Counted from the first letter of the stretch, positions 1,380-42,003 are shown. The stretch: DNA of 64,000 nucleotides from Candidatus Iainarchaeum sp. (GCA_043803765.1 JAZDJQ010000012.1:96001-160000); one strand, 5' to 3'. Numbers and translations: made by a program. Notes: generated by a model not told the origin, from the sequence alone.

Positions 1380-1531
1380 AATGACATCATCAATTTTGAA
1401 TCACTAGAATAACATCCATAATGGACTATTTTCTCCATGTTGGGCGCGCGATATTTTCTAACATTCTCACCCGCTTTTGGGTCACACCCTTTTTTCAGCA
1501 TCAAACTTCCACGCGTCTGGAAAGAAAGCCC

Positions 1532-3538: not shown

Positions 3539-3628
3539 GGATAAATTCTTCAGGAATCCTCTTTTTAACGCGTGGCGGTGGCGTGCCAACGGCATATTTA
3601 TATTGTTTTTCTTACTTTTCTTACTTGT

Positions 3629-3886
3629 ATGACAGATGTGGCGATTGTAACCGTAAGCGAAAAAGGGCAGATTGCCCTCCCTAAAAAAACGCGGGAGCGA
3701 TGGGGAATTCATAAGGGGGACAAATTATTGTTGTTGGAAAACAAGGGAAAAATCGTTTTGGCACCCGTTAAAGGGTCAAAAGAAGCTGCGGATGTGGATG
3801 AGATGCAGTGGATAATGGGGGTGTCCGCTCAAGTCTTGAAGGAGGATTGGGATTACAAGGGGGATGATGTCTGGGATGAGTTATGA
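3629..3886 (+). CDS. AbrB/MazE-type antitoxin
   Basis: VTVSEKGQIALPKKTRERWGI swapped-hairpin motif; overlaps the toxin start. Confidence 0.85.
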   Translation: MTDVAIVTVSEKGQIALPKKTRERWGIHKGDKLLLLENKGKIVLAPVKGSKEAADVDEMQWIMGVSAQVLKEDWDYKGDDVWDEL

Positions 3887-4226
3887 GCAGGGGGATATTG
3901 TATTAATGTATTATCCCAATACGGATCTTTCAACGGGTAAAAAAAGACCCGCATTAGTAGTATCAAATAGTGCGTTTAATTCTCGACAGGATGATCTGAT
4001 TACGTGTCTCATTACGAGCAATATCGAACAAGACCCGTTGGGAGTCATTATTGATTTCCATGATTTATCAGAGGGGAGTTTGCCGGTAAGGAGTCGCATT
4101 AAACCGTATCGAATTTTCACGGCTAAAAAAGGGGTCATTGAAAAAAAGCTGGGGGTAATCTCGAAACGGAAATTAAATGAGACGTTTGAAAAAATACAAA
4201 AGGTAATACGGCCCGCCGTGGTGTAA
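3876..4226 (+). CDS. mazF: PemK/MazF family toxin
   Basis: QGDIVL..YPNTDLSTGKKRPALVVSN motif. Confidence 0.85.
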   Translation: MSYEQGDIVLMYYPNTDLSTGKKRPALVVSNSAFNSRQDDLITCLITSNIEQDPLGVIIDFHDLSEGSLPVRSRIKPYRIFTAKKGVIEKKLGVISKRKLNETFEKIQKVIRPAVV

Positions 4227-4423
4227 AAATAGGCAATCCTGCTGAAAAGGACGTCGGAAAGGATTTGTAATATACTCTATTTTTGGTCTCCAAACCTGCT
4301 CACCCTCCAAAACCTATTTTAACGCACGAGGCCTGTTTGCGTCATGTCGGTTGCAATTAACAGGGTAAGCCAATGGATTGTCGAGCAATCCCTTTATACA
4401 CGCGCGACTGGAGTGAGACAACG

Positions 4424-28002: not shown

Positions 28003-28156
28003 CAGGCGATAGTTTACTAGAATATAAAAATATGTTTAGAAAATGAAGACGGATACCTATAAACGGGTTGTTGGCATACTCATCCTGCCTATTAGAATCA
28101 AAAATAATGACCGGAAAGACAAACCTTTTTACAACTGCCTATTATGGAAATACATT

Positions 28157-29050
28157 ATGCCTTTGATTGAGGGTTTCGATATTGGTGGAACTTCTATTCG
28201 TGCAGCACTTATTAGAAATGAAAAAATGATTGCAAAAAAAACCATTCCAAGCACAAAAGAGGGACATGAAAAACTTTTTTCGACCATCCAAATCCTTTCA
28301 AAGGAAATTAGAAGCAGCCTTGTTGATGAGAAAGTAGACTATACCGTGATTGGCCTTCCGGGCCCAACGCAAGATAGGGTGTTGCTTAATTCTGCAACAC
28401 TTGGAATTGCCTCTCCTGTCTCGCTCGAACCGCTCTTTCATTTTTTTCCTAATCCCCTGCGTTTTGAAAATGATATGAAACTAGCAGTAAAAGCCGAGTA
28501 TTTTCATGAACAAGGAAAGAAACAGGACTCATTTTATGTCCTAACATTTAGCACAGGGATTGGTGCTGGACTCGTATGGAATAAGAAAGTATTGGAAGGA
28601 ACCATGGGAGAATTTGGCCATATCATATTGAACACTCACACAAAGTCTCCTGCATGTTCATTAGGGCACACGGGTTGCTGGTTTGCATATTCTTCTGGGT
28701 TTGGAATCCAGAAACGTGCTGAAAAAGAAATGAATCAGTCACTTTCCACGATCGATGTTTTTTCGTTAGCCAAAGAAGGAAATGCGATCGCTTCATCAAT
28801 CATTTCAGATGCACGAAGAGCAAACGCTCAAGGGATTGGCACCATGTTGAATGTATTTGCAGTTGAACGGATAGTCGTGATGGGAAGTATTGGATTGTCC
28901 CAATTTACTGAAATTATTCCAACGGTAAAAGAAATCCAGCCCTACACGATTCACCCTATTCCCTCCATCATTCCTACGAGTCTAGGAGATGACATTGGAT
29001 TGTGGGGGGCATACTATTCGGGTGTTTCTTCTCTTTTAAAAAAAAGTTAA
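28157..29050 (+). CDS. ROK family sugar kinase
   Basis: FDIGGT, END, STGIGAG, GEFGH, CSLGHTGC, LGDDIGLWGA. Confidence 0.88.
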   Translation: MPLIEGFDIGGTSIRAALIRNEKMIAKKTIPSTKEGHEKLFSTIQILSKEIRSSLVDEKVDYTVIGLPGPTQDRVLLNSATLGIASPVSLEPLFHFFPNPLRFENDMKLAVKAEYFHEQGKKQDSFYVLTFSTGIGAGLVWNKKVLEGTMGEFGHIILNTHTKSPACSLGHTGCWFAYSSGFGIQKRAEKEMNQSLSTIDVFSLAKEGNAIASSIISDARRANAQGIGTMLNVFAVERIVVMGSIGLSQFTEIIPTVKEIQPYTIHPIPSIIPTSLGDDIGLWGAYYSGVSSLLKKS

Positions 29051-29075: not shown

Positions 29076-29660
29076 TTATTTTAGGCATTGAAAACGATAA
29101 TACCCATATCCTTTCATTCCTAGGTATTTTACGTTGTCAAGTTTGAACCCTGCTTTTTGAAAAATAGATTTAATGTCTTTATCAAAAAACATTCGTGGAT
29201 GCTCATCATATTGAACATTGTGAGTAGTCATAAAAAGTAATGAGAGATAGTTTCGCCAATTATTCAATAATGGAATTCCAATCACAATTACCGCACCCTT
29301 TTTACTTACACGGGTTAATTCTTTCAAAAATCCGTTTACTTGCCCCAAGTGTTCAAAAACATCAATAGCAATAATTTGCTCAAAAGAATTGTCGGGAAAA
29401 GGCCATTCATTGCGGGCATCAAAGCACACCGCTTCAATTCCTTCGGACTGAAGCAGCTTGACGGACGCACTCGAAATATCTCCACAAACTAACTTGTGTA
29501 TATGGGGTGTCTGTAATCGAGTCGTGATGCCCGAACCGATATTTAAAGTCGGAACATCGGCCAATCCGCTAAGAAATTTTTCATCGATTTTAGCTTTTCG
29601 CAACGCATGTTCCCGCTTTTCAGGACGATCAAAGTACTTCTCATAATCATAGTCCAGCAT
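29076..29660 (-). CDS. Class I SAM-dependent methyltransferase
   Basis: LNIGSG, GDIS, WPFPDNSFE, DVFEHL. Confidence 0.82.
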   Translation of the reverse strand: MLDYDYEKYFDRPEKREHALRKAKIDEKFLSGLADVPTLNIGSGITTRLQTPHIHKLVCGDISSASVKLLQSEGIEAVCFDARNEWPFPDNSFEQIIAIDVFEHLGQVNGFLKELTRVSKKGAVIVIGIPLLNNWRNYLSLLFMTTHNVQYDEHPRMFFDKDIKSIFQKAGFKLDNVKYLGMKGYGYYRFQCLK

Positions 29661-29762: not shown

Positions 29763-29783
29763 AGTCCCGCCTCCGGGACTTCA
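29763..29783 (-). repeat. tRNA-Tyr 3'-end fragment A (att-like site)
   Basis: agtcccgcctccgggacttca vs tRNA agtcccgcctcccggacttgca. Confidence 0.75.
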
Positions 29784-29803
29784 TCTCTAAAAATACTCAT
29801 TTT

Positions 29804-29962
29804 TCAAAATAAGGCATACACAAATGAGGAAACAGCTGCTGATTGTCCAATAAAAATAAGCAGTGCCACCAGCATAAGCAATACCACAATAGGCACTAAC
29901 CACCATACTTTTCGCTTCCACAAAAACTGAAGTAGCCCATTTAAAACAGTTAGTCTGCCCAT
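29804..29962 (-). CDS. DUF5989 family small membrane protein
   Basis: FLWKRKVWWLVPIV...FVYALF signature. Confidence 0.8.
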   Translation of the reverse strand: MGRLTVLNGLLQFLWKRKVWWLVPIVVLLMLVALLIFIGQSAAVSSFVYALF

Positions 29963-29974
29963 AATGAAGATAGT

Positions 29975-30358
29975 ATGTCCTCCCATTTTAAAAATCTAGG
30001 GATTTTGCTTGGATTTCTCCCCATTGGGATAATCATTTATGGATTTGTTTTTTCTTCCCCCTCTTTGGTTTTGCCATTCCTTTTGAGTGCCGTGGCAGTA
30101 AATATCCTGCTATTAGTTATTGCGCCGCGAATTTGGAAAAATCCTGCTTTATCCAAAATTAAAATGGGTGCGATGAGTGTTTTTAGTCTATTGAATAACA
30201 TTATTGTTTCAGCGGTACTAGCAGTGGCATACGTTTTCAGCGTAGGCATCGTTTTTATTTTCTCCCGCATTATCGGAAAAAAATTCATGAATCTTTATCC
30301 AAAAAAAACGAGCTGGGTGAAAATTGAAAAAGCAAAAGAAGACTATTTGGAGATGTAG
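29975..30358 (+). CDS. SxtJ-like membrane protein
   Basis: TM protein next to DUF5989 and a carbamoyltransferase; C-terminus RIIGKK..SW. Confidence 0.6.
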   Translation: MSSHFKNLGILLGFLPIGIIIYGFVFSSPSLVLPFLLSAVAVNILLLVIAPRIWKNPALSKIKMGAMSVFSLLNNIIVSAVLAVAYVFSVGIVFIFSRIIGKKFMNLYPKKTSWVKIEKAKEDYLEM

Positions 30359-30366
30359 GTGGCGCA

Positions 30367-32109
30367 ATGTACATACTTGGAGTTTCTGCATTTTATCATG
30401 ATTCGGCTGCCTGCCTGATTAAAGACGGTGAGATTGTCGCCGCCGCTCAAGAAGAACGTTTCACGAGAAAAAAACACGATAACTCATTCCCAAAAAACGC
30501 AATTGCATATTGCCTCCGGCAGGCAGGCATTTCTCCCAAGGAGGTGAATAAAATTAGTTTTTATGAAAAACCTTATGTCAAATTTGAACGCCTTCTCTAT
30601 CAATTTATTGAAACCTATCCAAAATCTTTCTCCACATTCATTGAAACCATCCCTATTTGGCTGAATGAACGGTTAAATGTACCCCAGCATTTTGAAAAAG
30701 AAGGTTTTCGTGCACCCATTCAATATGTGAGTCATCATCTTTCGCATGCAGCAGCCAGTTATTACACTTCCAAATTTGATAATGCGGCCATTCTCACTAT
30801 GGATGGTGTAGGAGAATGGGCTACCACCACGATGGGTTTTGCAGAAGGAAATAATATCACACTCACCCATGAAATCCATTTTCCCCATTCGCTGGGATTG
30901 TTATATAGTGCCATTACTGCATATCTTGGTTTTTCAGTGAATAATTCCGAATACAAAGTCATGGGCTTAGCCCCTTATGGAAAACCCAAATATAAGAGTG
31001 AATTTGACAAGCTCGTTCATGTGTATCCGGATGGCAGTTTCTCCCTCGATATGGATTATTTTGCCTTTACGTATGAAAAAAAAATGAATTCAAAAAAAAT
31101 GGAGGAATTATTCAACCATCCCGCTCGAAAAAAAGAATCCGAAGTCACCCAATTCCACAAAGATGTGGCAGCCTCTCTCCAAACCAAAACTGAAGAAATC
31201 GTCATCAAGTTATGCAATGAATTATTTCATCAGACTAAAAAAGAAAATATTTGTTTGGGCGGGGGCGTGGCGCTAAATTCGGTTATTAATGGAAAAATTT
31301 TGACGCAAACGCCTTTCAAAAAAATATGCATCCAGCCCGCAGCAGGAGATGCCGGCAGCGCTATGGGCGCCGCGCTGCATGTATGGCACCATTATTCTCC
31401 TCAGTCCCTGCGCCTTCCTTTCTCACACGCTTTCTGGGGACCGGGTTTCTCACAGGAAGAAGTAAAAAAATTTCTGGACCAGAAAAAAATAAATTATTCC
31501 ATGCTCAAAAATACACGGGAAATTGCTTCGCATACCGCTAAATTGATTCACGAAGGAAATATTGTGGGTTTTTTCCAAGGGAGAATGGAATGGGGCCCCC
31601 GCGCATTAGGGGCGCGAAGTATTTTGGCCAATCCTACAGACCCAAATATTAAAGATATATTGAACCAGAAAGTCAAGCACCGTGAACATTTTCGGCCGTT
31701 TGCACCGGTGATTCCTGTAGAGGATGCAAAAAATTGGTTTGATTGTGATTTGCCTCTCCCTGAGCCCGCTGATTACATGCTTATGGTGTACCCTGTCAAA
31801 AAATCCAAGCGCGAAAAAATTTTGGGAGTAGTCCACGTGGACGGCTCTGGAAGGTTACAAACCATTCGCAAAAACCAACACGCATTGTATTATCAGACCA
31901 TCCGCGAATTCGAAAAATTATCGGGGGTGCCGATTCTCATTAATACTTCTTTCAATATCCGTGGTGAACCCATTGTGTGCACTCCTGAGGATGCCTATCG
32001 CTGCATGATGGGAACAGGCATTGATTATTTGATGATTGAAAACTTCCTCGTGGCACGAAAAGACAACCTTCAAGATGCTTGGGATAGTGAAAAACTAGCA
32101 AATGATTAA
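30367..32109 (+). CDS. Carbamoyltransferase (NodU/CmcH/TobZ family)
   Basis: FYHDSAA, EERFTRKKH, HHLSHAA, DGVGE, EYKVMGLAPYG, GPRALGARS, FRPFAP, NTSFN. Confidence 0.95.
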   Translation: MYILGVSAFYHDSAACLIKDGEIVAAAQEERFTRKKHDNSFPKNAIAYCLRQAGISPKEVNKISFYEKPYVKFERLLYQFIETYPKSFSTFIETIPIWLNERLNVPQHFEKEGFRAPIQYVSHHLSHAAASYYTSKFDNAAILTMDGVGEWATTTMGFAEGNNITLTHEIHFPHSLGLLYSAITAYLGFSVNNSEYKVMGLAPYGKPKYKSEFDKLVHVYPDGSFSLDMDYFAFTYEKKMNSKKMEELFNHPARKKESEVTQFHKDVAASLQTKTEEIVIKLCNELFHQTKKENICLGGGVALNSVINGKILTQTPFKKICIQPAAGDAGSAMGAALHVWHHYSPQSLRLPFSHAFWGPGFSQEEVKKFLDQKKINYSMLKNTREIASHTAKLIHEGNIVGFFQGRMEWGPRALGARSILANPTDPNIKDILNQKVKHREHFRPFAPVIPVEDAKNWFDCDLPLPEPADYMLMVYPVKKSKREKILGVVHVDGSGRLQTIRKNQHALYYQTIREFEKLSGVPILINTSFNIRGEPIVCTPEDAYRCMMGTGIDYLMIENFLVARKDNLQDAWDSEKLAND

Positions 32110-32205
32110 CTATCAAATACGGAGATTCCTTCTCTTGGAAAAAAAGTTGACAGATTAAAAATCCAAAAGCCACCCATTATAAAATTATAGATTTTTATAG
32201 GGTTT

Positions 32206-33306
32206 ATGCGCTCATCTGAGTATCCTACTCTTGTCATGGTAGTGCTTTTTTCATTTATTATTGGATTGTTTCTCGCCGAAGGACTGTTGATCGTTCTCAA
32301 CATAGAACCTGCTCCCAATTTACTTTGCACATATATATCGGATGAAACACGCGGTCACGCATTATACCCAAATCTTTCCGGTCATTTTGTTTATGAACCT
32401 GAAATCGACATGAACTTCACTATCAATAAATTAGGTATGCGCGGAAGTGAACCAGACGAAAAACTAAAAAAAATATTTTTGGCAGGAGATTCCGTTTCTT
32501 TCGGATACAGTGTGGATCAAAATGAATCGTTTGCCGCAAAAACAAATCAAGAAATAAAGAAATTCGGATATGAACTGCTCAACTTGGGAACCCCCGGTTA
32601 TGGTTTGACACAATCACTTATTACCATTAAAAAAAATCTTGTGTTTAATAATCCCGAAATTGTAGTATTGGAAATAACTACTCCGAATGATTGGTCGGAT
32701 GATTATACCTTCACCACTGTTGGACCTACTAACTGGGTGGATGAACAGCACTGTATGGTCAGCAAGCGCCCTGCTGGAGTCATTACCACAATCAAATCAA
32801 TCGCTTACCGGAATTCAAGGCTGGCGCGGCTTATTAACAAAAACTTTCGCCAGGAAAATCTGATAGAATCCAACAATGTGATATCTGACAGCCTGTTGAA
32901 AGACCCAACCCAAATTGTGGTTCAGGCAAGACAGATACAACGCCAGCGTCTGAACGAATTTCGCGAGTTACAATCGCAATATCATTTCAAATCACTCATC
33001 TTGCTTATTCCAAGTCGTATTGAAACCGATGAGGTTTTTTTTAATCAGACCATCCAGAATACTCGCCCGGCCAATGAATACAATCGTCGAGAACAGATTG
33101 AATTTTATCTTGGGATTTGCAAGGAGATGGGTTTTGAATGCATTGACATGGGAAAGGCATTTGAGGAAGAATACCAATCCGAATCCGCATCAACCGAATA
33201 TTATAACCATAAAATTGACCATCATCCCAACAAAAAAGGAAACCTGTTCATTGCCGAAACACTGATACCGGAAATTGTCCAAAAAATTCAAGAAGATACA
33301 AATTAG
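32206..33306 (+). CDS. Membrane-anchored SGNH/GDSL hydrolase-like protein
   Basis: N-terminal TM, INKLGMR, GDSVSFG, NLGTPGYG, DHHPNKKGN. Confidence 0.82.
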   Translation: MRSSEYPTLVMVVLFSFIIGLFLAEGLLIVLNIEPAPNLLCTYISDETRGHALYPNLSGHFVYEPEIDMNFTINKLGMRGSEPDEKLKKIFLAGDSVSFGYSVDQNESFAAKTNQEIKKFGYELLNLGTPGYGLTQSLITIKKNLVFNNPEIVVLEITTPNDWSDDYTFTTVGPTNWVDEQHCMVSKRPAGVITTIKSIAYRNSRLARLINKNFRQENLIESNNVISDSLLKDPTQIVVQARQIQRQRLNEFRELQSQYHFKSLILLIPSRIETDEVFFNQTIQNTRPANEYNRREQIEFYLGICKEMGFECIDMGKAFEEEYQSESASTEYYNHKIDHHPNKKGNLFIAETLIPEIVQKIQEDTN

Positions 33307-33360
33307 AATGGTTCATTTCTCAATAGCGTCATGCGTCATTCGTCAATAGCATAAAAGAGA

Positions 33361-33400
33361 TAGTCCCGCCTCCCGGACTCGCACACGGGTATCTTCCGGC
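33361..33400 (-). repeat. tRNA-Tyr 3'-half fragment B (att-like site)
   Basis: tagtcccgcctcccggactcgcacacgggtatcttccggc aligns with the tRNA up to the anticodon stem. Confidence 0.88.
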
Positions 33401-33503
33401 TTTATTCAAAGGTTCGGCTGTGGCCTCACAATTAGTGAAGTTAGTGCACATAGTGAATAATGGGATAGGCAAGCTCTTTATATGAAAATAATGCAATAGG
33501 GCT

Positions 33504-34130
33504 ATGTTTGAAAAATATCGCCCATTTTTACTGGGAGTTTCTCATTCTAAGGAAATGCTGTGGGATGTTTTTCAAGAGATTGACAAGGTAAAGCCAAAAT
33601 CAATTGGAATAGAAGAATCAAAATGGTCTGTTGAGAACTGGAGACAAATTGGGTTGAACCCCCACCACGCTGGATTTTGGCGAGTATTGATTAGAGAGTG
33701 TAGAGCGCGAGGTATTGAAATAACGTACCTTACTCCTGATAGAGTTGCCCAACAAAATATCCGAGAACAACTTCGGTTGAAAAAACTGGGAATTACCGCA
33801 CAAAAGGTTCTTGAAAATCCACAAGGGCACACAGAAGGAAAGGAACTGTTACGACATATGCGCGATAAAACTACGGATGTCGTTGAAATGACTGCTCGGA
33901 AAAGACGTCCACAGATGCTTGTTTTGGGCTTATTTCATTCTGCTATTTTACGAAAAAACTTGGGCATTCCAAAAGCTCGATTTAGTGTCCATGTAGTCCC
34001 TTCGCCACGTGCGATAAGAGAGATGGGTGTTCGCGTTCCAAGAAGAAAATTAGAAGCGAGAAAAAAACAATTAATTGAAGGAATGCTTTTTCATGTCAAA
34101 GGATACCGAAGAGCCGCTCGAAAAAGATAG
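33504..34130 (+). CDS. Hypothetical basic protein (single-gene cassette)
   Basis: 208 aa ORF with TATA-like tttatat about 25 nt upstream; fills the space between fragments B and C. Confidence 0.7.
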   Translation: MFEKYRPFLLGVSHSKEMLWDVFQEIDKVKPKSIGIEESKWSVENWRQIGLNPHHAGFWRVLIRECRARGIEITYLTPDRVAQQNIREQLRLKKLGITAQKVLENPQGHTEGKELLRHMRDKTTDVVEMTARKRRPQMLVLGLFHSAILRKNLGIPKARFSVHVVPSPRAIREMGVRVPRRKLEARKKQLIEGMLFHVKGYRRAARKR

Positions 34131-34142
34131 AATTATTCTCAA

Positions 34143-34215
34143 TCCGGTCGTCGGGACGAAAGCGAAGCTTGAGTGTGTGAATGGATTAGTCCCGCCTCCC
34201 GGACTCGCAACCGGG
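34143..34215 (-). repeat. tRNA-Tyr 3'-end fragment C plus conserved trailer with inverted repeat
   Basis: tccggtcgtcgggacgaaagcgaagcttgagtgtgtgaatggattagtcccgcctcccggact, near-identical to 39755-39817. Confidence 0.92.
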
Positions 34216-34222
34216 CTTTTAC

Positions 34223-34546
34223 TCACTTTCTCACCGGCGGGTTCGATTCGGCAATGAGGTCTATGCTGGCGAGTACTATCATCTTTTCCAAAAACTTCTC
34301 ATGCTCTTTCAGAATGACGTCTCCATTTGGAAGTTTTGTGATTTCGGCCATCGCACGGTCTCGACATGGCTTACTTTCCCAATCTGCAATAGCATACAAA
34401 ATGGATGGATTCTCCAAACTGCGGAACAGTTTTGTTCCCCTTGCACCCGGGTAAGTTTGAATAATGTCACTCCCCCACTGCCACTGCCGGATAAAGTCGG
34501 TTTCCTTGCCAGGAATGGGATGGTGCTCAAAAATAACGCGATACAT
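34223..34546 (-). CDS. Antibiotic biosynthesis monooxygenase (ABM)-fold protein
   Basis: PGKETDF..W...YPGARGTKLFR..YAIADWES pattern. Confidence 0.72.
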   Translation of the reverse strand: MYRVIFEHHPIPGKETDFIRQWQWGSDIIQTYPGARGTKLFRSLENPSILYAIADWESKPCRDRAMAEITKLPNGDVILKEHEKFLEKMIVLASIDLIAESNPPVRK

Positions 34547-34562
34547 AGGTTCCTTCGCTTAA

Positions 34563-34787
34563 CTAAGCCATTTTCATAAACTCGTCTCGCTCCATCTTGA
34601 GTTCGAACTTAATGATTTTGTTTAACAATCCAGGCGGAATGGGCTTGTTCGAATGAAAGGCAACTGTTAGAATTCGCCCATCCAAATGTTCAAATGTTTT
34701 GTGTGACCCTTTTTGTCGCACTTCCAAAAAACCAAGTTTGTGCAGAATTTTGATTAAGTCTTGGGGATACAGAACGGATAATTTCAT
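34563..34787 (-). CDS. hicA: HicA mRNA interferase toxin
   Basis: LGFLEVRQKGSHKTF..H...PPGLLNKI. Confidence 0.9.
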   Translation of the reverse strand: MKLSVLYPQDLIKILHKLGFLEVRQKGSHKTFEHLDGRILTVAFHSNKPIPPGLLNKIIKFELKMERDEFMKMA

Positions 34788-34801
34788 TTGAAATCACCTA
34801 T

Positions 34802-35035
34802 TTACACAACCACTTTAACCATTCCAATAACCGATTCAACATCCACTTTGACTTTCTTTTTGACAAGCGTTTCTAAGTGCAAGGAAATTGCTTCCTTCAT
34901 ATTTTCTAACAATTCTTCAACAGTATCCGCATAGGAATAGCAACCGGGCAAAGCAGGGACTGAACCATAGTATTGTCCAGTTTCTGCATCTTTTTCGATA
35001 ACCACATCGTAAGGTCTTGTCATAATACTACCCAT
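34802..35035 (-). CDS. hicB: HicB antitoxin
   Basis: YYGSVPALPGCYSYADTVEELLENMKEAI. Confidence 0.9.
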   Translation of the reverse strand: MGSIMTRPYDVVIEKDAETGQYYGSVPALPGCYSYADTVEELLENMKEAISLHLETLVKKKVKVDVESVIGMVKVVV

Positions 35036-35088
35036 ACTACTATGAGAATAAAACCTTGCTTCCAGTAAACCGCCAAAAAGTGCTATTC

Positions 35089-35155
35089 ATCCATTCGGCG
35101 GGACGATTCATAAGCCTCAGGTGGTGATGGATTAGTCCCGCCTCCCGGGACTTCA
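35089..35155 (-). repeat. tRNA-Tyr 3'-end fragment D plus inverted-repeat trailer
   Basis: ggcgggac-N30-gtcccgcc tcccgggacttca. Confidence 0.88.
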
Positions 35156-35278
35156 ATGGAAAATATTCAGTATTATTCTTTTCCTCGCCTAAAATATGTG
35201 CAGTGTACATCGTCCGCCGAATTTGACTGATGATCCCATCCATATATCTCTTTTATACCCAGAAACAATTGATTGGCC

Positions 35279-36028
35279 ATGGATTGGGTATTATTGTTCA
35301 TTGTTTTTCTAGTGGGACTCGGAACAACTTTCATCGGCGCGATTAGTGGGGGAGGGGGGCTTCTCATGCGACCCATTCTAATTTTTTTAGGTGTGCCCAC
35401 CATCACTCTGATCGGCACTCCACGCGTGGCAGGAATATTGGGCGATTGGCCTGGATTGTTTTTGTTTCACAAGCATAAAAAAATCGATTGGAATCTGGCC
35501 ATATTCCTGACCATCCCTAACTTGATTGGAACCATCATCGCGGGGATGGTAGTCATAAGCTTGCCGACAGAGGCATTGGAATTATTTTTAGGAATACTGC
35601 TCATCGTCTCGGGAGTGGTATTTTCGTTCAATAAAAATTTCGGATTGCTTGAACAAAAATCTCCCTTTTCCAAAATTGGACAAAACATCCTCGGATTTAT
35701 CGGGACGAATGTCATATCCTTCGTTGGAACCATTACCGGTGGACTTGGCACACTCTACATCTCGTTCTACACGTTGATTTATGGTAAAAATTACATCAAC
35801 GCGGCTGGGTTGTGGCGCATCTCTTCCTATTTCGGAGGATTGGGCAGTTCGGTGGTATTTATCTGGAGTGGAATTGTCGACTGGCAACTCTGTCTGGTGC
35901 TGAGTGCAGGATTTTTGATCGGCTCCTATTTTGGGACGATTTACGGATTAAAAAAAGGGGTCGCGCGGGTCCGCTACCTTGTGATAGCACTCGCATTTGG
36001 CGCTGGAATAAAACTAATCCTATTTTAG
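35279..36028 (+). CDS. Sulfite exporter TauE/SafE family protein
   Basis: ISGGGGLLMRPILIFLGVP motif, multiple TM helices. Confidence 0.85.
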   Translation: MDWVLLFIVFLVGLGTTFIGAISGGGGLLMRPILIFLGVPTITLIGTPRVAGILGDWPGLFLFHKHKKIDWNLAIFLTIPNLIGTIIAGMVVISLPTEALELFLGILLIVSGVVFSFNKNFGLLEQKSPFSKIGQNILGFIGTNVISFVGTITGGLGTLYISFYTLIYGKNYINAAGLWRISSYFGGLGSSVVFIWSGIVDWQLCLVLSAGFLIGSYFGTIYGLKKGVARVRYLVIALAFGAGIKLILF

Positions 36029-36057
36029 GGAAAACGCCCAACCATAGATCAACGTAT

Positions 36058-36138
36058 ATTCATCTCCCAAACCAGCACGCGAGGATTCTTTGTTCGAGGC
36101 CTCGCCTGAGGGCTCGCTGACGTTAGTGTAGTTAGTGC
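36058..36138 (-). repeat. Degenerate tRNA-Tyr fragment G plus cassette-end motif
   Basis: Reverse complement aagaatcctcgcgtgctggtttgggag resembles tRNA aagatccccggtgcaagtccgggag; adjacent cgaggcctcgcctgagggctcg matches 39271, ttagtgtagttagtgc matches 33432. Confidence 0.55.
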
Positions 36139-36159
36139 TGTTCAACGAATGCATCTGTC

Positions 36160-36513
36160 TTACCTTTTCTTTATCTTGAACCGTTTATCATAATCGGGGT
36201 GCGACTCAATAACTAACACGAAGCAAATGACTTCGATTTCTTGGCGGCGAATGGTAAAAAGCATTCGCCAGTATTGAGCGAGTCGAATTTTGAATAGATT
36301 ATCTACATCCAATTCTTTTGGAATATCTTTTTTGGAGACTACTTCTCCGCGCAGAGGGTCTTCTTTCAACCATTCAATCTTTTCATTAATCGAACGCCAG
36401 AGGGTTTGATTTTCTGAACTCTTGATTCCTTTAGATTCTTCTTCAGTTACAAGTTTCTTCAGGCGTTCGTACTCTTCGAGAGCCTGACCAGTAAGGCGGA
36501 CGCGTGCTTTCAT
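36160..36513 (-). CDS. RelE/ParE-like toxin
   Basis: NLFKIRLAQYWRMLFTI..HPDYDKRF; overlaps the antitoxin stop (ATGA). Confidence 0.7.
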   Translation of the reverse strand: MKARVRLTGQALEEYERLKKLVTEEESKGIKSSENQTLWRSINEKIEWLKEDPLRGEVVSKKDIPKELDVDNLFKIRLAQYWRMLFTIRRQEIEVICFVLVIESHPDYDKRFKIKKR

Positions 36514-36764
36514 ACTTCCACGCTCGCATCCATCAATCGCTTCATTTTGTCTTTCGGAACATACACCCAAATAATGCCTTTGGGAGTGTCTAAAATCATA
36601 AAGCGCTTCTCCAAGTAATCTAAAATAACATCAAGAGTTGGGCGCATAATACGATTACCCGCTCGCTTTAGCAATTCATAACGGGAAAGAGGCTCTTTCG
36701 CCTCTTTGAGAATCTCTTCGACTAAAAGAACGGTTTTGAGAGTAGGGTAGTGTAGGACCTGCAT
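36510..36764 (-). CDS. Winged-HTH antitoxin-like protein
   Basis: HYPTLKTVLLVEEIL..TLDVILDYLE..IIW; coupled to the toxin. Confidence 0.7.
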   Translation of the reverse strand: MQVLHYPTLKTVLLVEEILKEAKEPLSRYELLKRAGNRIMRPTLDVILDYLEKRFMILDTPKGIIWVYVPKDKMKRLMDASVEV

Positions 36765-36837
36765 AAACGTCACCAACTACACTACGATAGACATATAACG
36801 CATATAAAGATATACCCTTAAACTCGCATTTCCAGTA

Positions 36838-37509
36838 TTACTTTATTGCCTTTAGCATTTCCACTGCACGTTTAGGGTCTCCCCTTCCTACTGGGAAATA
36901 ACACGGGACCACATTGGTTTGATGATTGCCCACTTTTAATGGATAAGTTGCTAGTTTGCGTGATTGAACGAATTTATCATAATAGTCCTGTAACCTGATT
37001 GTTTCTTGTGTGAGAAATGTAAATGGAATCAGCCCAAATGTGACAATGGTTTTGGGTTGAACTATCTCAATCTCCCTTCTCAAAATAGGTAGAAATAACT
37101 TAACTTTCTGTGCATCTGGCAATGTGGCGTCAGCTCCTGTCCATTTTACAATGTTAGTAAAGTAAAACGATTTTGAATCCAAGAAAGACCTAACTTTTTC
37201 AGTAAATTCCAATGACCAATTAGGTTCTTTCTCAATTTGTTTCATCAGTTCGTCGTCAAATAATTCTGCACGATTAAAAATTCGCCAGACGGGCTTGGTT
37301 CCAATAAAAGGAAAACGAGGACCTTTCCATAAAGGACTTGAGCTAATATTATGGTGCGTTGGATTAATGAAAACAAACATGTAATTCGGACTCTCAACAT
37401 GGCCGTTTCCTACAATGGGCATCAACCGATTTTCTGGAAAAAACGGTGTATGTGTGTCATTCACTATTTTCCATAAATCGTCTAACGAATGGCAATCTTC
37501 AGGACTCAT
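36838..37509 (-). CDS. Uracil-DNA glycosylase superfamily protein (atypical)
   Basis: FYFTNIVKW, LRREIEIVQPKTIVTFG, PCYFPVGRG. Confidence 0.75.
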   Translation of the reverse strand: MSPEDCHSLDDLWKIVNDTHTPFFPENRLMPIVGNGHVESPNYMFVFINPTHHNISSSPLWKGPRFPFIGTKPVWRIFNRAELFDDELMKQIEKEPNWSLEFTEKVRSFLDSKSFYFTNIVKWTGADATLPDAQKVKLFLPILRREIEIVQPKTIVTFGLIPFTFLTQETIRLQDYYDKFVQSRKLATYPLKVGNHQTNVVPCYFPVGRGDPKRAVEMLKAIK

Positions 37510-37537
37510 AGGATACAAACCGTTCTTTGATATTTAA

Positions 37538-37603
37538 TCCGTCCGGCGGGACAAGTCTGAAGTGTGAAAGTTTGAGGTAATAGTCCCGCCTCCCGGTCCT
37601 GCA
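37538..37603 (-). repeat. tRNA-Tyr 3'-end fragment E plus inverted-repeat trailer
   Basis: ggcgggac-N30-gtcccgcc tcccggtcctgca. Confidence 0.88.
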
Positions 37604-37612
37604 GTTATTTCT

Positions 37613-38587
37613 CTATTCAATGGATTCACCCAGCTTTTTGACAATAATCTCTTTATTTTCCTCAATAATTTGATGAATTTCTTTTCCACGATTCTCAAGG
37701 CACAAGTAAATGAATTTGGAGAACTTTGCATACTCTTTGGAAAGCTGAACCCGTTCAAGCAATGTAATGTAGCTCGCGCGATTGGAAAGGTTCACAATCG
37801 CACGTGGAAAACCTTTTTTTTGGAGCATTCGATTGAGGATTTCCCTTCCTGTGCGTCCATTTCCATCCTCAAACGGGTGAATAAACTCAAAGCGGGCGTG
37901 AAATTCGGATGCTAATTCAAGCGGGTGCACTCTTTCGCTATTTTTCTCCATCCAATCTAACAATTTTTTTATTCCGCTTTCGACTTTATCAGCTGGAACT
38001 GGCCTTACTTTTGATGCAGTAATGAACATCGGCCCTGTTCGATACTTTCCAGGATGTTTCTCCGGAAATCCATCTAAAATAGCCGCATTGATTTTTTTGA
38101 TGTTACGTTCATTGATTTCATTAATTTTCTTGGAAACCATTGCCGCTTTTTTCATATTTTCAATTTCTCTTATCTCATCTACTTTCTTTCCGGCAACGGA
38201 AGCCCCTTTCGTCAAAACTAACAGTGCTTCCTGCAAACTGAGCGAGTTTCCTTCCACAGAAGCACTTCCCTGTGCGTAACGCACGAATTCGTCTTCTTTA
38301 AATGATTCAAATCCGCTGGGAAAAAAATCCTCTAGGATAGAATAGTCTACTTTCAGTCGTTCCAAAGATAGAATTTCAGGAAAAGAGAGGATGTGCGACC
38401 GAAACTGTTCATGTGTTTGCTTAGCCCGTTCCAGTGCCTTCTTTTGAATGAACGTTTCAAGTCCTTCTTTCATTCTTCCGAAAGCCAGCCCCTTGTTTCC
38501 AAGAAGGACACTTATCCTCTTCTTTTCTACTCGGTCTTCTAAATAGAAGTAAGCCGTCCCCTTGATTGTGCGCTTTGAAATGAACAT
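37613..38587 (-). CDS. Fic domain protein
   Basis: HPFEDGNGRTGR catalytic motif; SASVEGN inhibitory helix. Confidence 0.92.
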   Translation of the reverse strand: MFISKRTIKGTAYFYLEDRVEKKRISVLLGNKGLAFGRMKEGLETFIQKKALERAKQTHEQFRSHILSFPEILSLERLKVDYSILEDFFPSGFESFKEDEFVRYAQGSASVEGNSLSLQEALLVLTKGASVAGKKVDEIREIENMKKAAMVSKKINEINERNIKKINAAILDGFPEKHPGKYRTGPMFITASKVRPVPADKVESGIKKLLDWMEKNSERVHPLELASEFHARFEFIHPFEDGNGRTGREILNRMLQKKGFPRAIVNLSNRASYITLLERVQLSKEYAKFSKFIYLCLENRGKEIHQIIEENKEIIVKKLGESIE

Positions 38588-38652
38588 AGAACAAGTTAAC
38601 ACCAAAAAGGTTAAAAAATGGTATTTTTAGTAAATATGGTGTTAACCCACAA

Positions 38653-38802
38653 TTAGTTTTCCAAACCTAATTTGACGCCCTCTCTGATAATACCATAAAC
38701 GTGCCAAATATCACAGACTCCACAGGACGGAAAATAATCCGGGCAACGTTTTCCCCAGTATTTTCGAATATGTTTATTCAATTCAAGCAGAACTTTCTTC
38801 AT
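38653..38802 (-). CDS. Small Cys-containing hypothetical protein
   Basis: MKKVLLELNKHIRKYWGKRCPDYFPSCGVC; overlaps the upstream ORF. Confidence 0.5.
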   Translation of the reverse strand: MKKVLLELNKHIRKYWGKRCPDYFPSCGVCDIWHVYGIIREGVKLGLEN

Positions 38803-39097
38803 CTTCCTTAACTCCCTCGTCGAAGCACTTGTTGCATTCCCAATACTCAACCTTTCTCACCTTCCCAGTCCACCTGACTACATTGTGGCTTTTTCCACCC
38901 ATTCGAAAAGTTCCAACTTTCACATGCTCACCCGTTCCCTCAATGGGAAATTTTAGTTTACTAAAGAAATGTCCTTTATCATAATGACCTGATTTTGTTA
39001 GTCGAACCCACATCCACTTTCCACAAATCAAACATTTACGACGAATTTTTCGGACAAATTTAGCATTCTCGCGCGCATGAAAATGTTTTTCAGACAC
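38783..39097 (-). CDS. Zn-ribbon-like hypothetical protein
   Basis: CLICGK ... YWECNKC. Confidence 0.55.
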   Translation of the reverse strand: MSEKHFHARENAKFVRKIRRKCLICGKWMWVRLTKSGHYDKGHFFSKLKFPIEGTGEHVKVGTFRMGGKSHNVVRWTGKVRKVEYWECNKCFDEGVKEDEESSA

Positions 39098-39181
39098 CTT
39101 TTAAAAAGACCCCATTCAAAATAAAATCATATGCAAATTAATACACTATAGACGAATACCAGTTCGACAGTTAGACGGTTA

Positions 39182-39238
39182 TTATACTTCCACGCTTCCA
39201 TGGATCAGCTTCTTCATCTTATCGTTCGGAGCATACAA
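39182..39238 (-). pseudogene. Remnant 3' end of an antitoxin paralogous to 36510..36764
   Basis: Translates LYAPNDKMKKLIHGSVEV* vs VYVPKDKMKRLMDASVEV*; cut off at fragment F. Confidence 0.65.
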
Positions 39239-39294
39239 CCTCCTGATACTCGCAACCGGGAAATTATATCCGAAGCCTCGTCTGCGGACTCGGA
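39238..39294 (-). repeat. Degenerate tRNA-Tyr fragment F plus cassette-end motif
   Basis: cctcctgatactcgcaaccggg vs fragment C cctcccggactcgcaaccggg; then cgaagcctcgtctgcggactcg. Confidence 0.6.
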
Positions 39295-39300
39295 GGGCAT

Positions 39301-39723
39301 TTAATTATCCATCTTAAGCGCTTTAAGTTCAGTTTCAAGTTTTTTTACAAGGTCATTTAAGTCAGTATATTGGATGATTTTGTGTAAATTAGGAATACCC
39401 AAAACCATAGTTGATTTTGATAAATCAACAGTGTCTTTGGCAATGAGAATGAGTGGAATATCATTTTCGTATCCCATTTGAAGTTCCATTCCAACACCAT
39501 GAGAAGGACTACTTACTTCGGCGATAAATAAGTCGCATTTTGTAATGGTGTCAATTGTTCGCGTGTAAAACTGTTTTGGAGTTTCTTTTGAATCCCAAAA
39601 ATCGGGATAAGTACCTATAACTTTGTCATAGTATTTGCTACAAAGTTTAGCTATTCTTTTGTAAATAGGGAGATAATCCTGCCCAAAAAGAAAGATTGGT
39701 CCGAACACGTAAACGCTCGTCAT
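39301..39723 (-). CDS. Nucleoside 2-deoxyribosyltransferase / DNPH1(RCL)-like N-glycosidase
   Basis: VYVFGPI, CDLFIAEVSSPSHGVGMEL, STMVLG. Confidence 0.82.
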   Translation of the reverse strand: MTSVYVFGPIFLFGQDYLPIYKRIAKLCSKYYDKVIGTYPDFWDSKETPKQFYTRTIDTITKCDLFIAEVSSPSHGVGMELQMGYENDIPLILIAKDTVDLSKSTMVLGIPNLHKIIQYTDLNDLVKKLETELKALKMDN

Positions 39724-39801
39724 AGTACTGCCACCTCAACCATGTATTTAACTGTCCGGTCGTCGGGACGAAAGCGAAGCTTGAGTCGGTGAATGGATTA
39801 G

Positions 39802-39874
39802 TCCCGCCTCCCGGACTTGCACCGGGGATCTTCCGGTCTACAGCCGGACGCATTAGCTACTATGCTAAGGCGGG
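39802..39874 (-). tRNA. tRNA-Tyr(GTA), intronless; anchor of the cassette array
   Basis: CCCGCCT..TCCGG-CT-GTA-GA-CCGGA..CCCGG-TGCAAGT-CCGGG-AGGCGGG-A. Confidence 0.92.
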
Positions 39875-40043: not shown

Positions 40044-40658
40044 ATGCCTGTTGAAAAAATCACCATTTGGTATGCCCCATCTAAGTGTATTGGTGCAGGG
40101 GAGTGTGTGAAGAACAATCCTGCCGTATTCGGGTTTGATGACCGTACAAAAAAGGCGATGCTGATTGGTGGAAAAATAAATGATAAAAAGGAATTCACTC
40201 GTGAAATTACGGGCGATTCTACACATATTGGGTATGCGATTACGGCTGCTGCTTCTTGTCCGGTAAATGCGTTCATCGTAAAAGATTCTGCCGGAATAGT
40301 TCGTGTGGGAAATAAAATAGAAATTGCTGAAGCAAAAGAATTGCATCCGGTTTATGATGATGCAAAGGATTTTGTGTTAGACCCGAAAGGTTATTTTCTC
40401 ATTCGCGTGAATGCACAAAAAAAAGAAATCGAAGTTGGTTTTTGTAATACTAAAAACATTGTTGTGTTGAAAGTAATAGGAAAAAAGCCTATTGATATTT
40501 ACACAGCAGTTGCTCGTAAAGAACCGTGTTTGCGTCCTGAGCATTATGCGTATCTTGGAAGAGAGTTGGAGAAAGCATATCATTGTATTCAAACAGGATT
40601 AGTGTATGTTCAGGATGGTGAATTGCACGAAATGAAGTTAGTAGGAAAAAAAGAATAA
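40044..40658 (+). CDS. Ferredoxin-DUF4346 fusion protein
   Basis: CIGAGEC..AASCPVNA ferredoxin; LDPKGYFLI..HYAYLGRELEKA..YVQD. Confidence 0.8.
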   Translation: MPVEKITIWYAPSKCIGAGECVKNNPAVFGFDDRTKKAMLIGGKINDKKEFTREITGDSTHIGYAITAAASCPVNAFIVKDSAGIVRVGNKIEIAEAKELHPVYDDAKDFVLDPKGYFLIRVNAQKKEIEVGFCNTKNIVVLKVIGKKPIDIYTAVARKEPCLRPEHYAYLGRELEKAYHCIQTGLVYVQDGELHEMKLVGKKE

Positions 40659-40820
40659 TTCGGCTTTTTCCTAGTGGCTTGTTAATGGTTCAAATGCTTA
40701 GGCTTTTTGCTATAAATCGCTTGGGAAATGGTTTTTCGATTGTCATACTTTTCTTATTTTATTATTCCTTTTTTTTAAGATAGGTTGAAACAAATCCCTT
40801 TTTTGTATTGAAAAACACGC

Positions 40821-40948
40821 AATCTAAACTACGGCGGGCTTCAGCCCGCCGGGTTCACTTCCCGCGAACGACTTGTCGAGAACCCAACACAAAGCCGATT
40901 CATCCACCCGCTAAAAGCAGGCGGGGTTCTCGGCAAGGGGTTCCTAAA
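40821..40948. mobile_element. ORF-less IS200/IS605-family end remnant (PATE-like)
   Basis: Hairpin cggcgggcttcagcccgccg and gccgattcatccacccgctaaaagcaggcggggttctcggc, typical of IS605/IS1341 ends. Confidence 0.65.
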
Positions 40949-40974
40949 TTAAGTGGTTCATTCTAAAGAGTAGA

Positions 40975-42003
40975 ATGGATTCTTTTCAAGTAAGTAAGTT
41001 GTTGGAATGGTTTTCTCATGCTCAACGAAAATTGCCTTGGAGGGAGAATTATTCCCCGTATGAAGTGTGGTTGTCCGAAGTCATGGCTCAACAAACCCGT
41101 ATTGAGCAGATGCTTCCCTATTATGCTCGTTTTCTTAAAAAATTTCCGACCGTGAAAGTGCTGGCGGATGCAGATGAGGAAAAAGTATTGAAGGAATGGG
41201 AAGGATTAGGGTATTATTCTAGGGCACGGAATGTGCAGGCGGCGGCTAAACAAATAGTGAATGAAAAAAGTGGAAAGATTCCTACAACAAAGGAAGAATT
41301 GGGAACATTGCGTGGTTTTGGTCCTTATATTTCAAGCGCGGTAGCAAGTATTGCCTTTAATCAGGATGAAGTAGTGGTGGATGGAAATGTTTTCCGTGTG
41401 ATGAGTCGTTTTTGGGGGAATAAGGAAGATGTTTCTCTTCCTAAAACACGCCGATTGTTTGAAAAAAAACTACTAAAAATTCTTCCGAGAGGAAAAGCAA
41501 GGGATTTTAATCAGGCATTGATGGAGTTAGGTGCATTAGTATGCGTTCCGGAAAAGCCGTTGTGTGAAAAGTGTCCTCTTTCTAAAGCGTGTTTTGCAAA
41601 TATAGAGAGTAAACAATCCTTTTTTCCAGTGAAAAAGAAGAAAGGAAAAATTCCCTTGCGTCACTTTGCTGCGATTCATGTAGAAAATGATGCGCGTATT
41701 CTTCTCTTTCCGAGGAAAGAGAAATTGTTGAATGGAATGTATGAGTTTCCGATGGTGGAATACAATCCATTATCGGATAGCGTGAAGGATATTGAAAAGA
41801 AAATAGGAGAAAAATTTGGTTGGCGTGTGCATTTGTCTAAAAAAATAGGGGATGCGACACAGCAGTACTCTCATTTCAAACAGCACGTATGCTTGTTTGA
41901 TGCGGTGATTGAAAAAAAGGATAGTATTCCTTGGGTGAGAAAGGAAAGCGTTTCTTCCCTTCCATTATCGCGTATTCAGCAGAAATTGTTGCGTGATTTT
42001 TAG
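40975..42003 (+). CDS. mutY: A/G-specific adenine glycosylase
   Basis: SEVMAQQT, WEGLGYYSRARN, VDGNV, NQALMELGALVC..CEKCP..C, NUDIX-like tail. Confidence 0.95.
   Translation: MDSFQVSKLLEWFSHAQRKLPWRENYSPYEVWLSEVMAQQTRIEQMLPYYARFLKKFPTVKVLADADEEKVLKEWEGLGYYSRARNVQAAAKQIVNEKSGKIPTTKEELGTLRGFGPYISSAVASIAFNQDEVVVDGNVFRVMSRFWGNKEDVSLPKTRRLFEKKLLKILPRGKARDFNQALMELGALVCVPEKPLCEKCPLSKACFANIESKQSFFPVKKKKGKIPLRHFAAIHVENDARILLFPRKEKLLNGMYEFPMVEYNPLSDSVKDIEKKIGEKFGWRVHLSKKIGDATQQYSHFKQHVCLFDAVIEKKDSIPWVRKESVSSLPLSRIQQKLLRDF

Follow-up and report, generated by a model that had tools for sequence, protein, structure and literature searches.

A tRNA-Tyr-anchored array of small gene cassettes in a Candidatus Iainarchaeum genome and its relatives, with a probable origin in serial site-specific integration

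Analysis of a 64,000-nucleotide stretch of Candidatus Iainarchaeum sp. DNA (GCA_043803765.1 JAZDJQ010000012.1:96001-160000, hereafter the window) allowed us to delimit, downstream of its tRNA-Tyr gene, an array of seven gene cassettes of 0.5-3.6 kb whose boundaries are direct repeats of the tRNA 3′ end. The window is G000:C12:96001-160000, that is, part of contig C12 of a 1.02 Mb genome (G000) assembled in 19 contigs and 93.5% complete, which we compared with 16 relatives for a set of 17 genus genomes. We consider it probable, though well short of certain, that the locus is an accretion array at an integration hotspot, in which cassettes bounded by attachment (att) sites were integrated one after another by site-specific recombination and mobilised in trans by a helper integrase. 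The cassettes carry no recombinase gene and would therefore be non-autonomous. Serial integration fits an exact core within diverged arms, similarity between species that is precise to the cassette, empty sites in relatives, and an integrase gene that is rarer than the arrays themselves.

The array is anchored at an intact tRNA-Tyr(GTA) gene on the minus strand, called at 39801-39874 by ARAGORN and at 39802-39874 by the Rfam tRNA family RF00005 (63.2 bits). Inspection shows its variable arm to be short and its first pair to be C1-G72, which we take to be archaeal traits, and the genome contains a full-length match to the archaeal small-subunit ribosomal RNA model (1339 bits), a model that also matches bacterial controls. 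A 15-nt core, CCGGGAGGCGGGACT, is made up of the 3′ strands of this tRNA's T stem and acceptor stem plus two more bases, and is present in the window in six copies, all in the same minus-strand orientation (repeat family D1). The first copy lies in the tRNA itself (39800-39814, exact), whose 3′ end at 39800-39817 is read as the attB/attL core. Exact copies followed by a right arm (P′) are found at 37582-37596 and at 35134-35148, the latter in repeat family D4. The copy at 34188-34202 is exact, has the full boundary module described below and gives the best module match (nhmmer E 1.9e-25), while the exact copy at 33362-33376 has its left arm and a right arm unlike those of the other copies. The outermost copy, at 29763-29777 with one mismatch, is the distal end of the array. 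In a 16-mer search allowing three mismatches, seven matches were found against 0.23 expected, six of them the array copies and the seventh a plus-strand sequence at 7393 with three mismatches, and a 26-mer search gave three matches against 0 expected; counts so far over expectation leave chance as no explanation for the repeats. No further copy of the 15-nt core at one mismatch or fewer exists in the rest of the 1.02-Mb genome. As a separate observation, a lone near-copy of the tRNA-Tyr core in T-loop context, with one mismatch in 18 nt, lies at G000:C9:5752-5786 (minus strand, nhmmer E 0.009) in an intergenic gap between housekeeping-looking genes, and was set aside.

The core is part of a boundary module of about 130 nt, in which a degenerate 3′ half of tRNA-Tyr precedes the exact core and some 45 nt resembling a trailer follow it as the right arm. 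Most of the non-tRNA copies in the genus keep this order, and traces of the T arm and the anticodon arm can be seen by eye in the left arm. In the window, about 45 nt downstream of the core are common to four of the six copies (39800, 37582, 35134 and 34188). Next to the tRNA this right arm occupies 39755-39799 (minus strand, 45 nt, repeat D2) and includes an inverted copy of the right half of the core (GTCCCGAC..CCGGA); as the 78-nt repeat D2, the tRNA-end region is 91% identical to 34143-34220. Right arms come in two or three sequence types, all with the inverted copy (GTCCCGNC..CGGA), which lies about 30 nt downstream of the core in four of the six window copies and in most copies of the relatives. 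The core itself holds a small palindrome, AGTCC-N8-GGACT, and this arrangement would correspond to the layout expected of a simple tyrosine-recombinase site. A profile search with the whole module added only a few degenerate sites, and Rfam matched tRNAs only, with no family at the boundary modules.

Two further boundaries survive in degenerate form, both in the tRNA-proximal half of the array. The first, between cassettes 3 and 4 as numbered from the tRNA outward, lies at 36064-36118 (minus strand; local alignment, and nhmmer E 0.077-0.4) and aligns to a boundary module of a relative with a score of 33, compared with a shuffle maximum of 16 and none of 300 random windows reaching 33; its position is exactly where the homologous cassette of relative G016 ends with an intact core. 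The second, at 39239-39292 (minus strand, local alignment), has kept its left arm while the core has decayed. It scores 20 against the same shuffle maximum, a value reached by 6 of 300 random windows, and nhmmer did not report it at E<=1. Beside it, at 39184-39240 on the minus strand, are 57 nt of the 3′ end of a second gene for a winged helix-turn-helix (wHTH) protein, F3, 77% identical to 36512-36568 (repeat D5), a fragment that implies an internal deletion at this place. An earlier reading made from the window alone (the sequence-only reading) had placed same-orientation copies of the tRNA-Tyr 3′ end between the gene modules, with degenerate copies at about 39240 and 36060; the former are confirmed as six same-strand cores, and the latter prove to be real boundary remnants. 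That reading had also supposed the newest cassette to lie next to the tRNA, and it is on this side of the array that both decayed boundaries are found.

Comparison across the genus revealed extensive variation at this one site. The core is present in all 16 other genomes, and in 9 of the 17 at least two cores are clustered downstream of tRNA-Tyr (at two mismatches or fewer): 10 in G004 (over two contigs), 9 in G002, 6 in G000, 5 in G001, 3 in G016, and 2 each in G015, G011, G007 and G005. Site content thus spans from no cassette to nine or more, and in other families of the order one or two extra core copies are the most that is seen. The cassette polymorphism that the sequence-only reading would expect among relatives is evident, with 1 to about 10 core copies per genome and with cassettes that differ in content and order and are drawn from a common pool. 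Shared members of the pool include HicBA in four genomes, a wHTH-AAA ATPase pair in two, SurE, F41-F42, F32-F33, F36 and F37-F38, among others. The units are small, with a median core-to-core interval of 1641 nt (n=29, range 690-8129) and 28 of the 29 intervals at or below 4 kb; the sole large interval, of 8129 nt, is an integrase element. Among 86 array open reading frames (ORFs), 60 share the orientation of the tRNA and 26 have the reverse one, and several cassettes hold two to four genes.

Three genomes, G013, G012 and G010, have the site in its empty state. In these, tRNA-Tyr is followed by a conserved trailer and then by gene family F9, and in G001 and G016 the same trailer (B′) and F9 come after the last core. 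In G000 the F9-F2 stretch is absent, and a ROK-family gene (F28) is the first distal gene in common with a relative. On the other side, upstream of tRNA-Tyr, a MutY-like gene (F0) and a ferredoxin-like gene (F1) are common to nearly all loci that reach that far. One conceivable source of such a pattern is misassembly, in which the repeated modules would have chained together fragments of different strains: the genus genomes appear to be metagenome assemblies, and modules of about 130 nt are near assembler k-mer sizes. However, arrays recur in 9 of the 17 genomes, including one within a 446-kb contig (G002) and one in a single-contig genome (G015), and their flanks are syntenic, so that we give an artefact almost no credence. 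Archaeal records are titled 'MAG', and the multi-copy ones among them bear the names uncultured archaeon, Ca. Iainarchaeum and Ca. Woesearchaeota. It was also observed that the first core of L046 (G015), L052 (G008), L055-L058 and L106 has no tRNA-Tyr called by ARAGORN, though the T arm and acceptor end are present, and that the tRNA-Tyr sequence of L087 has extra bases after the anticodon; the tRNA-Tyr genes of all these loci probably carry introns.

Some cassettes are more alike between species than the genomes that hold them. The cassette with the genes for a UDG-family protein, F3 and a 136-aa ORF (36090-37596) is 88.0% identical over 1511 nt to a cassette of G016, and the alignment begins at the first core base in both, whereas flanking genes of G000 and G016 are 67.9-71.2% identical. 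Other blocks of 77-91% identity stop at or near cores. Identity at third codon positions, taken at codons of conserved residues, gives a similar picture for a number of cassette genes: 0.80 for UDG and 0.66 for the 136-aa ORF; 0.84 for F42 and 0.76 for F41 between G004 and G001; 0.68 for HicB and 0.71 for HicA between G002 and G007; and 0.62 and 0.60 for F36 and F35. The proximal flank genes F0 and F1 have means of 0.48-0.49 and a maximum of 0.59. A value of 0.94 for F32, at 57% amino-acid identity, looks unreliable. On these comparisons, some cassettes have passed from one species to another since those species diverged.

Among the array proteins, the wHTH protein F3 stands out by its strong conservation. 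Seven of the 17 genomes have a single close homologue each (amino-acid identity 86-99%), every time between two cores of a tRNA-Tyr array and with differing neighbours, and the mean amino-acid identity is 88%, compared with about 60% for flank proteins. An AlphaFold model built on the seven-sequence alignment is a winged helix-turn-helix (predicted local distance difference test score, pLDDT, 75.8). A fold search with the model returned generic winged-helix regulators only (best E 2.2e-3), a PDB sequence search gave nothing below E 0.3, and Atlas matches are unnamed archaeal clusters. As a guess, F3 could be a DNA-binding recombination helper of the excisionase type or an antitoxin-type regulator.

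F3 also changes cassette, within a block of about 316 nt whose ends are not cores, an observation that suits another way of moving cassettes. The modules, homologous over about 110-130 nt, might serve as portable homology, so that cassettes were swapped between cells or within an array after DNA uptake and no site-specific enzyme took part. The homologous stretch takes in the right arm, for which an alignment to the native trailer at empty sites was obtained as well (nhmmer alignments with G010, G013 and G012 extend 30-68 nt past the core), and module exchange between tandem integrated elements by homologous recombination is noted in a review of archaeal recombinases (PMC8371274). Conservation within the module points elsewhere: majority frequencies at arm positions are only about 0.3-0.6 while the core is exact, as expected of a short specific site; the bases that adjoin the core (AGT on one side, AAT on the other) show 67-88% conservation. 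This core is also the one used by the integrase-bearing element. We regard homologous recombination by itself as an improbable source of the arrays.

A candidate for the helper, if serial integration built the arrays, comes from two relatives. Directly after tRNA-Tyr in both G016 and G001, and reading away from it, is a gene for a 350-aa integrase of family PF00589 (E 1.8e-18), which in G016 is the first gene of an 8.1-kb unit reaching to the following core, with both ends assembled. This integrase, cognate to the tRNA-Tyr site, is found in only these 2 of the 17 genomes (61% identical mutually); the other genus genomes have paralogues of 30-43% identity at other locations. Core count correlates with the number of integrase-family genes across the genus (Spearman rho 0.80, n=17, uncorrected for kinship, genome size or completeness and with two off-array copies set aside by hand). 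Relatives of the integrase were also found at 36 metagenome loci, and those with enough flank adjoin differing tRNAs: tRNA-Tyr just upstream in L105 and L111, tRNA-Arg in L116 and L117, and tRNA-Leu in L128 and L129, with many other loci lacking a called tRNA. At L106 no tRNA is called, a core copy lies 62 nt upstream of the integrase, and the unit measures 8.7 kb between two cores. The 8-kb element encodes 10 proteins, of which PHROGs identified the integrase and no other, with few further assignments from Pfam, and neither the 18-nt core nor the integrase protein had a match in a viral contigs collection.

The G000 array differs in this respect. The statement of the sequence-only reading that no cassette encodes an integrase or transposase holds, since Pfam finds no such domain in the array ORFs and a six-frame PF00589 search of the whole genome has no match on the window's contig. 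Decayed integrase remnants are likewise missing from the intervals by the six-frame profile search and by tblastn, in which the G016 integrase, searched against the array at E<=10, matched the tRNA-derived core only. The G000 genome has no match to a serine recombinase or resolvase, to Cas1 or to TnpB. A transposon or a miniature inverted-repeat transposable element was rejected, the boundaries being direct repeats and the ORFs being free of transposase domains. A split integrase gene of the type known from Sulfolobus spindle-shaped viruses (SSV), where attP is internal to the gene and integration leaves its N- and C-terminal parts at opposite ends, was considered as well. The elements are not read in this way because in G016 an in-frame stop precedes the distal core by two codons, and because G001, L106 and L111 have ordinary start codons past the tRNA; no integrase fragment is found at any G000 boundary. 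As observations on the same genes, the integrase frame at L045:5274-6326 (G016) and at L043 (G001) is open from an ATG inside the tRNA-Tyr anticodon arm through the att core, several loci have a frame that is open across the tRNA, and in G016 the stretch from the end of the tRNA to the integrase's conserved 'DIY' region contains neither ATG nor GTG nor TTG.

The probable course of events is as follows. A tyrosine integrase would recognise an 18-22-bp site at the tRNA-Tyr 3′ end (AAGTCCGGGAGGCGGGACT, with internal arms AGTCC-N8-GGACT), presumably the site of strand exchange, and small circular units would have inserted there repeatedly, each insertion regenerating the tRNA and adding one copy of the core. 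Integrase supplied in trans could then excise or insert any segment between two cores, the 350-aa enzyme encoded after tRNA-Tyr in the two relatives (on the 8.1-kb element in G016) being the candidate helper, and cassettes would move only where a cognate integrase is present, either alone or alongside the integrase-bearing element by accretion. Such traffic may be going on in the genus today. A recombinase acting in trans, which the sequence-only reading had proposed, is thus plausible, given an integrase at the same site in 2 of the 17 genomes, but its presence in G000 is not borne out. Recombinase genes of the same family do exist there: PF00589 matches in the six-frame search lie on contigs C1 (294 aa, Xer-sized), C14 and C17 only. 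The C14 gene has a 444-aa frame (G000:C14:32170-33591) whose start lies 17 nt past tRNA-Met, and a search at two mismatches or fewer in 18 nt gave no repeat of the 3′ end of tRNA-Met that could mark the far end of this element.

A number of observations weigh against serial integration as the explanation. The closest G000 paralogues of the tRNA-Tyr-type integrase, on C14 and C17, are only 39% and 36% identical to it and no cognate copy was found in this 93.5%-complete genome, so that the array there may be static. The largest arrays, in G002 and G004, also have no integrase adjacent to tRNA-Tyr, and the arms of the integrase element are unlike those of the cassettes, with the core alone in common. 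Exactness of the core is partly a product of the search: the 33 non-tRNA copies (21 exact, seven with one mismatch, five with two) were gathered by core match at two mismatches or fewer, which inflates the apparent conservation, although few extra sites came from the whole-module profile. Similarity at third positions is not raised for HicBA of G000 against the others (0.40-0.50) or for F37, F38, F34, F33 and F44 (0.42-0.53), and some distal flank families (F9, F2) are also high in some pairs; with many shared families no more alike than the flanks, much of the cassette pool must be old. F3 has a third-position identity of only 0.61, and its conservation is therefore mostly due to purifying selection and not to recency. 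Modules of about 130 nt could mislead an assembler on cassette order. Finally, the two degenerate cores and the truncated F3 gene are signs of decay in place.

Much of this would also be expected if the units were leftovers of full-size, integrase-bearing elements that had lost integrase and backbone by deletion and no longer move, and if sharing between genomes reflected vertical descent and loss. The missing cognate integrase in G000, the decayed boundaries with the truncated gene, and the many shared families that are no closer at synonymous sites than flank genes all suit such a history, and according to PMC8371274 an integrated element without an integrase has presumably lost the gene for it. 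Yet no interval retains an integrase remnant, 28 of 29 intervals do not exceed 4 kb and most have a clean core, and conserved arms lie on both sides of the cassettes. A whole cassette that is 88% identical against flanks of 68-71%, in a block beginning exactly at the core, is also difficult to reconcile with descent and loss. We therefore hold this fossil origin to be unlikely, while accepting that the array in G000 may itself be idle and partly decaying.

The inverted copy of the core's right half allows for an explanation of a different kind, namely a true integron-type system, in which the module would fold as single-stranded DNA and the core would pair with the inverted copy about 30 nt downstream to give an attC-like site for a dedicated recombinase. 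In the four window copies with the inverted half (GTCCCGNC..CGGA), also found in most copies of the relatives, the long-range pairing is part of the minimum-energy fold in three. However, the folds are not clearly better than those of shuffled sequences (z -1.2 to -2.4; 7-27 of 200 shuffles fold equally well), and an A replaces C in about half of the copies, breaking a pair. Covariation cannot be expected of the core, since the tRNA fixes its sequence. The attC consensus, RYYYAAC ... GTTRRRY, was found in 0 of 45 modules, compared with 1 of 500 random windows, and no IntI is detected, there being no PF00589 match on the window's contig. An integron in the strict sense was rejected on these grounds, and a single-strand mechanism of this kind strikes us as very improbable. 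The sequence-only reading had called the array integron-like, which stands as an analogy and fails as an identity, given the absence of IntI and attC, the multi-gene cassettes and the 26 of 86 ORFs in opposite orientation.

A more ambitious version of the serial-integration reading can be put forward tentatively, and we rate it as possible though rather doubtful. According to it, this DPANN-type genus would have a dedicated gene-capture locus at tRNA-Tyr, integron-like in function and independent in origin. Its parts would be non-autonomous cassettes of about 1.6 kb that form a shared pool, cores of 18-22 bp that selection for mobility preserves exactly inside a structured module of about 130 nt, and a rare helper integrase on an 8-kb element, perhaps assisted by F3.

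Known systems provide several points of comparison. In mechanism the array would be a case of tandem integration at a tRNA gene, a known process, in unusually miniature form. What is unusual is the archaeal DPANN-type host, the very small units, the shared boundary module on two sides and the presence of one strongly conserved wHTH gene per array. The ssrA islands of Dehalococcoides are a very close likeness and, with the cis-mobilizable elements and tycheposon islands treated below, are the nearest analogues: as described in PMC3146451, their units lie in tandem and have as boundaries 20 bp repeated from the 3′ end of the gene, with about 85 bp of extra conservation around the repeats, and 15 units without an integration module are proposed to be cis-mobilisable and to have moved by accretion, with strain-variable copy number. 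A small genome, tandem units at one small-RNA gene, direct repeats of its 3′ end and variable copy number are common to both. Those islands are bacterial, target the transfer-messenger RNA gene, involve a CcrB-like serine recombinase and have repeats spread over up to 100 kb, implying far larger units (same portion of PMC3146451), whereas the present arrays belong to archaea and lie at a tRNA gene, with a tyrosine integrase as candidate enzyme and units of 1.6 kb in the median. That text also treats cis-mobilizable elements (CIMEs), which resemble the cassettes in being att-bounded units without recombination genes that sit in tandem with an integrase-bearing element and are excisable with it. 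CIMEs are described in bacteria with conjugative helpers; for our arrays no transfer machinery is known, and mobilisation in trans is a proposal. Streptococci provide examples of CIMEs and of site-specific accretion with integrative and conjugative elements or integrative and mobilizable elements.

In the tycheposon islands of Prochlorococcus, successive tRNA-anchored integrations push older elements outward and leave partial tRNAs scattered, according to the part of bioRxiv 10.1101/2020.12.28.424599 available. Streamlined genomes, tRNA anchoring and integrase-bearing elements much rarer than the islands are shared features. Tycheposon remnants include fragmented integrases (same source, same portion), of which none was found in the G000 array, and the boundary module shared here around partial tRNAs is not described for those islands in that portion. 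Archaeal integrons are presented as attC/IntI systems, with no mention of tRNAs in the available text of bioRxiv 10.1101/2022.02.06.479319. With them, and with clusters of attC sites lacking integron-integrases (CALINs) as treated there, our arrays share small cassettes rich in toxin-antitoxin (TA) genes, many arrays without a nearby integrase and cassettes common across taxa; they differ in having no IntI and no attC motif, boundaries of tRNA 3′ ends, multi-gene cassettes and ORFs in both orientations.

SSV-type systems of archaea are similar in that tyrosine integrases target tRNA genes and elements remain without a working integrase, although the split integrase gene is not supported here. 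She et al. are said to have described archaeal tandem integrations and SSV-type gene capture between 2001 and 2004. Tandem integration and integrase-less integrated elements are mentioned in what is available of PMC8371274, and cassette-sized units with shared arms are not mentioned in that part. In the literature searched, no description of an array of this kind in DPANN archaea was found. To our knowledge, few routes of gene gain are known for the genomes of about 1 Mb of symbiotic or streamlined archaea. A changing stack of tiny TA, repair and transport units at one tRNA site, some of them shared between species, would represent a compact route of accessory-gene flux. It would also give a second case of cassettes stockpiled in the manner of an integron, independent of the first and achieved by ordinary integration at a tRNA site.

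The genes of the G000 array serve toxin-antitoxin, DNA-repair, transport and small-metabolism functions. Cassette 1 encodes a 140-aa protein with a weak likeness to nucleoside 2-deoxyribosyltransferase (NDT) (39301-39723, minus strand; Pfam PF05014 E 2.9e-5, 24.6 bits, below the cut-off of 28.8). Cassette 2 (37613-39097, minus strand) has two small ORFs without a Pfam or NCBIfam family (38783-39097 and 38653-38850) and a Fic-domain protein (37613-38605; Pfam E 5e-20). In cassette 3, all on the minus strand, are the UDG-family protein (36838-37518; Pfam E 7.9e-8), the 88-aa F3, assigned by predicted fold (36510-36776), and the 136-aa ORF, with no NCBIfam family (36160-36570). Cassette 4 consists of a TauE/SafE-family membrane protein (35273-36028, plus strand; Pfam E 7.2e-29), and cassette 5, on the minus strand, of HicB (34802-35035; Pfam E 8.6e-14), HicA (34563-34787; Pfam E 1.4e-17) and an ABM-domain protein (34223-34546; Pfam E 1.8e-6). 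Cassette 6 is a 208-aa orphan with no Pfam or NCBIfam family (33504-34130, plus strand). Cassette 7 has on the plus strand a weakly supported SGNH-like protein (32206-33306; Pfam E 0.005, NCBIfam 2.5e-8 and far below its cut-off), a carbamoyltransferase (30367-32109; Pfam domains E 4.8e-91 and 1.3e-70) and a 127-aa ORF with no NCBIfam family (29975-30358), and on the minus strand DUF5989 (29804-29986; Pfam E 1.2e-15). Pfam therefore bears out the Fic, UDG, TauE, HicB, HicA, ABM, carbamoyltransferase and DUF5989 labels of the sequence-only reading and leaves its NDT and SGNH labels weak; its wHTH label is carried by the F3 model only, and 'RelE' and 'SxtJ' were confirmed by no library. The proximal flank holds a Fer4/DUF4346 protein and a MutY-like glycosylase (40044-42003, plus strand; Pfam, families F1 and F0). 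In the distal flank are a methyltransferase (29076-29660, minus strand; Pfam) and the ROK-family protein F28 (28043-29050, plus strand; Pfam), in common with G016 at 71% nucleotide identity.

Elsewhere in the window, positions 9001-10000 have a G+C content of 52.8%, compared with about 42% in the rest, and no Rfam match. At least eight other G000 tRNA genes are followed, 60-210 nt downstream and on the same strand, by a repeat of the final 18-25 nt of the same gene, from the T loop to the 3′ end, at C1:48830-48975, C1:49979-50270, C2:10421-10560, C3:55-210, C4:39074-39265, C18:91702-91860, C18:92891-93090 and C18:114300-114486. Five of the tail copies are preceded by a common hairpin-like module ending in ...AAAAGGCCGGTTCTGAAT, a pattern present five times in the genome and always after a tRNA, and the same tail-duplication layout is seen at tRNA-Tyr in a record titled Ca. 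Woesearchaeota (L087). These duplications could be cargo-less mini insertions or a tRNA-trailer element.

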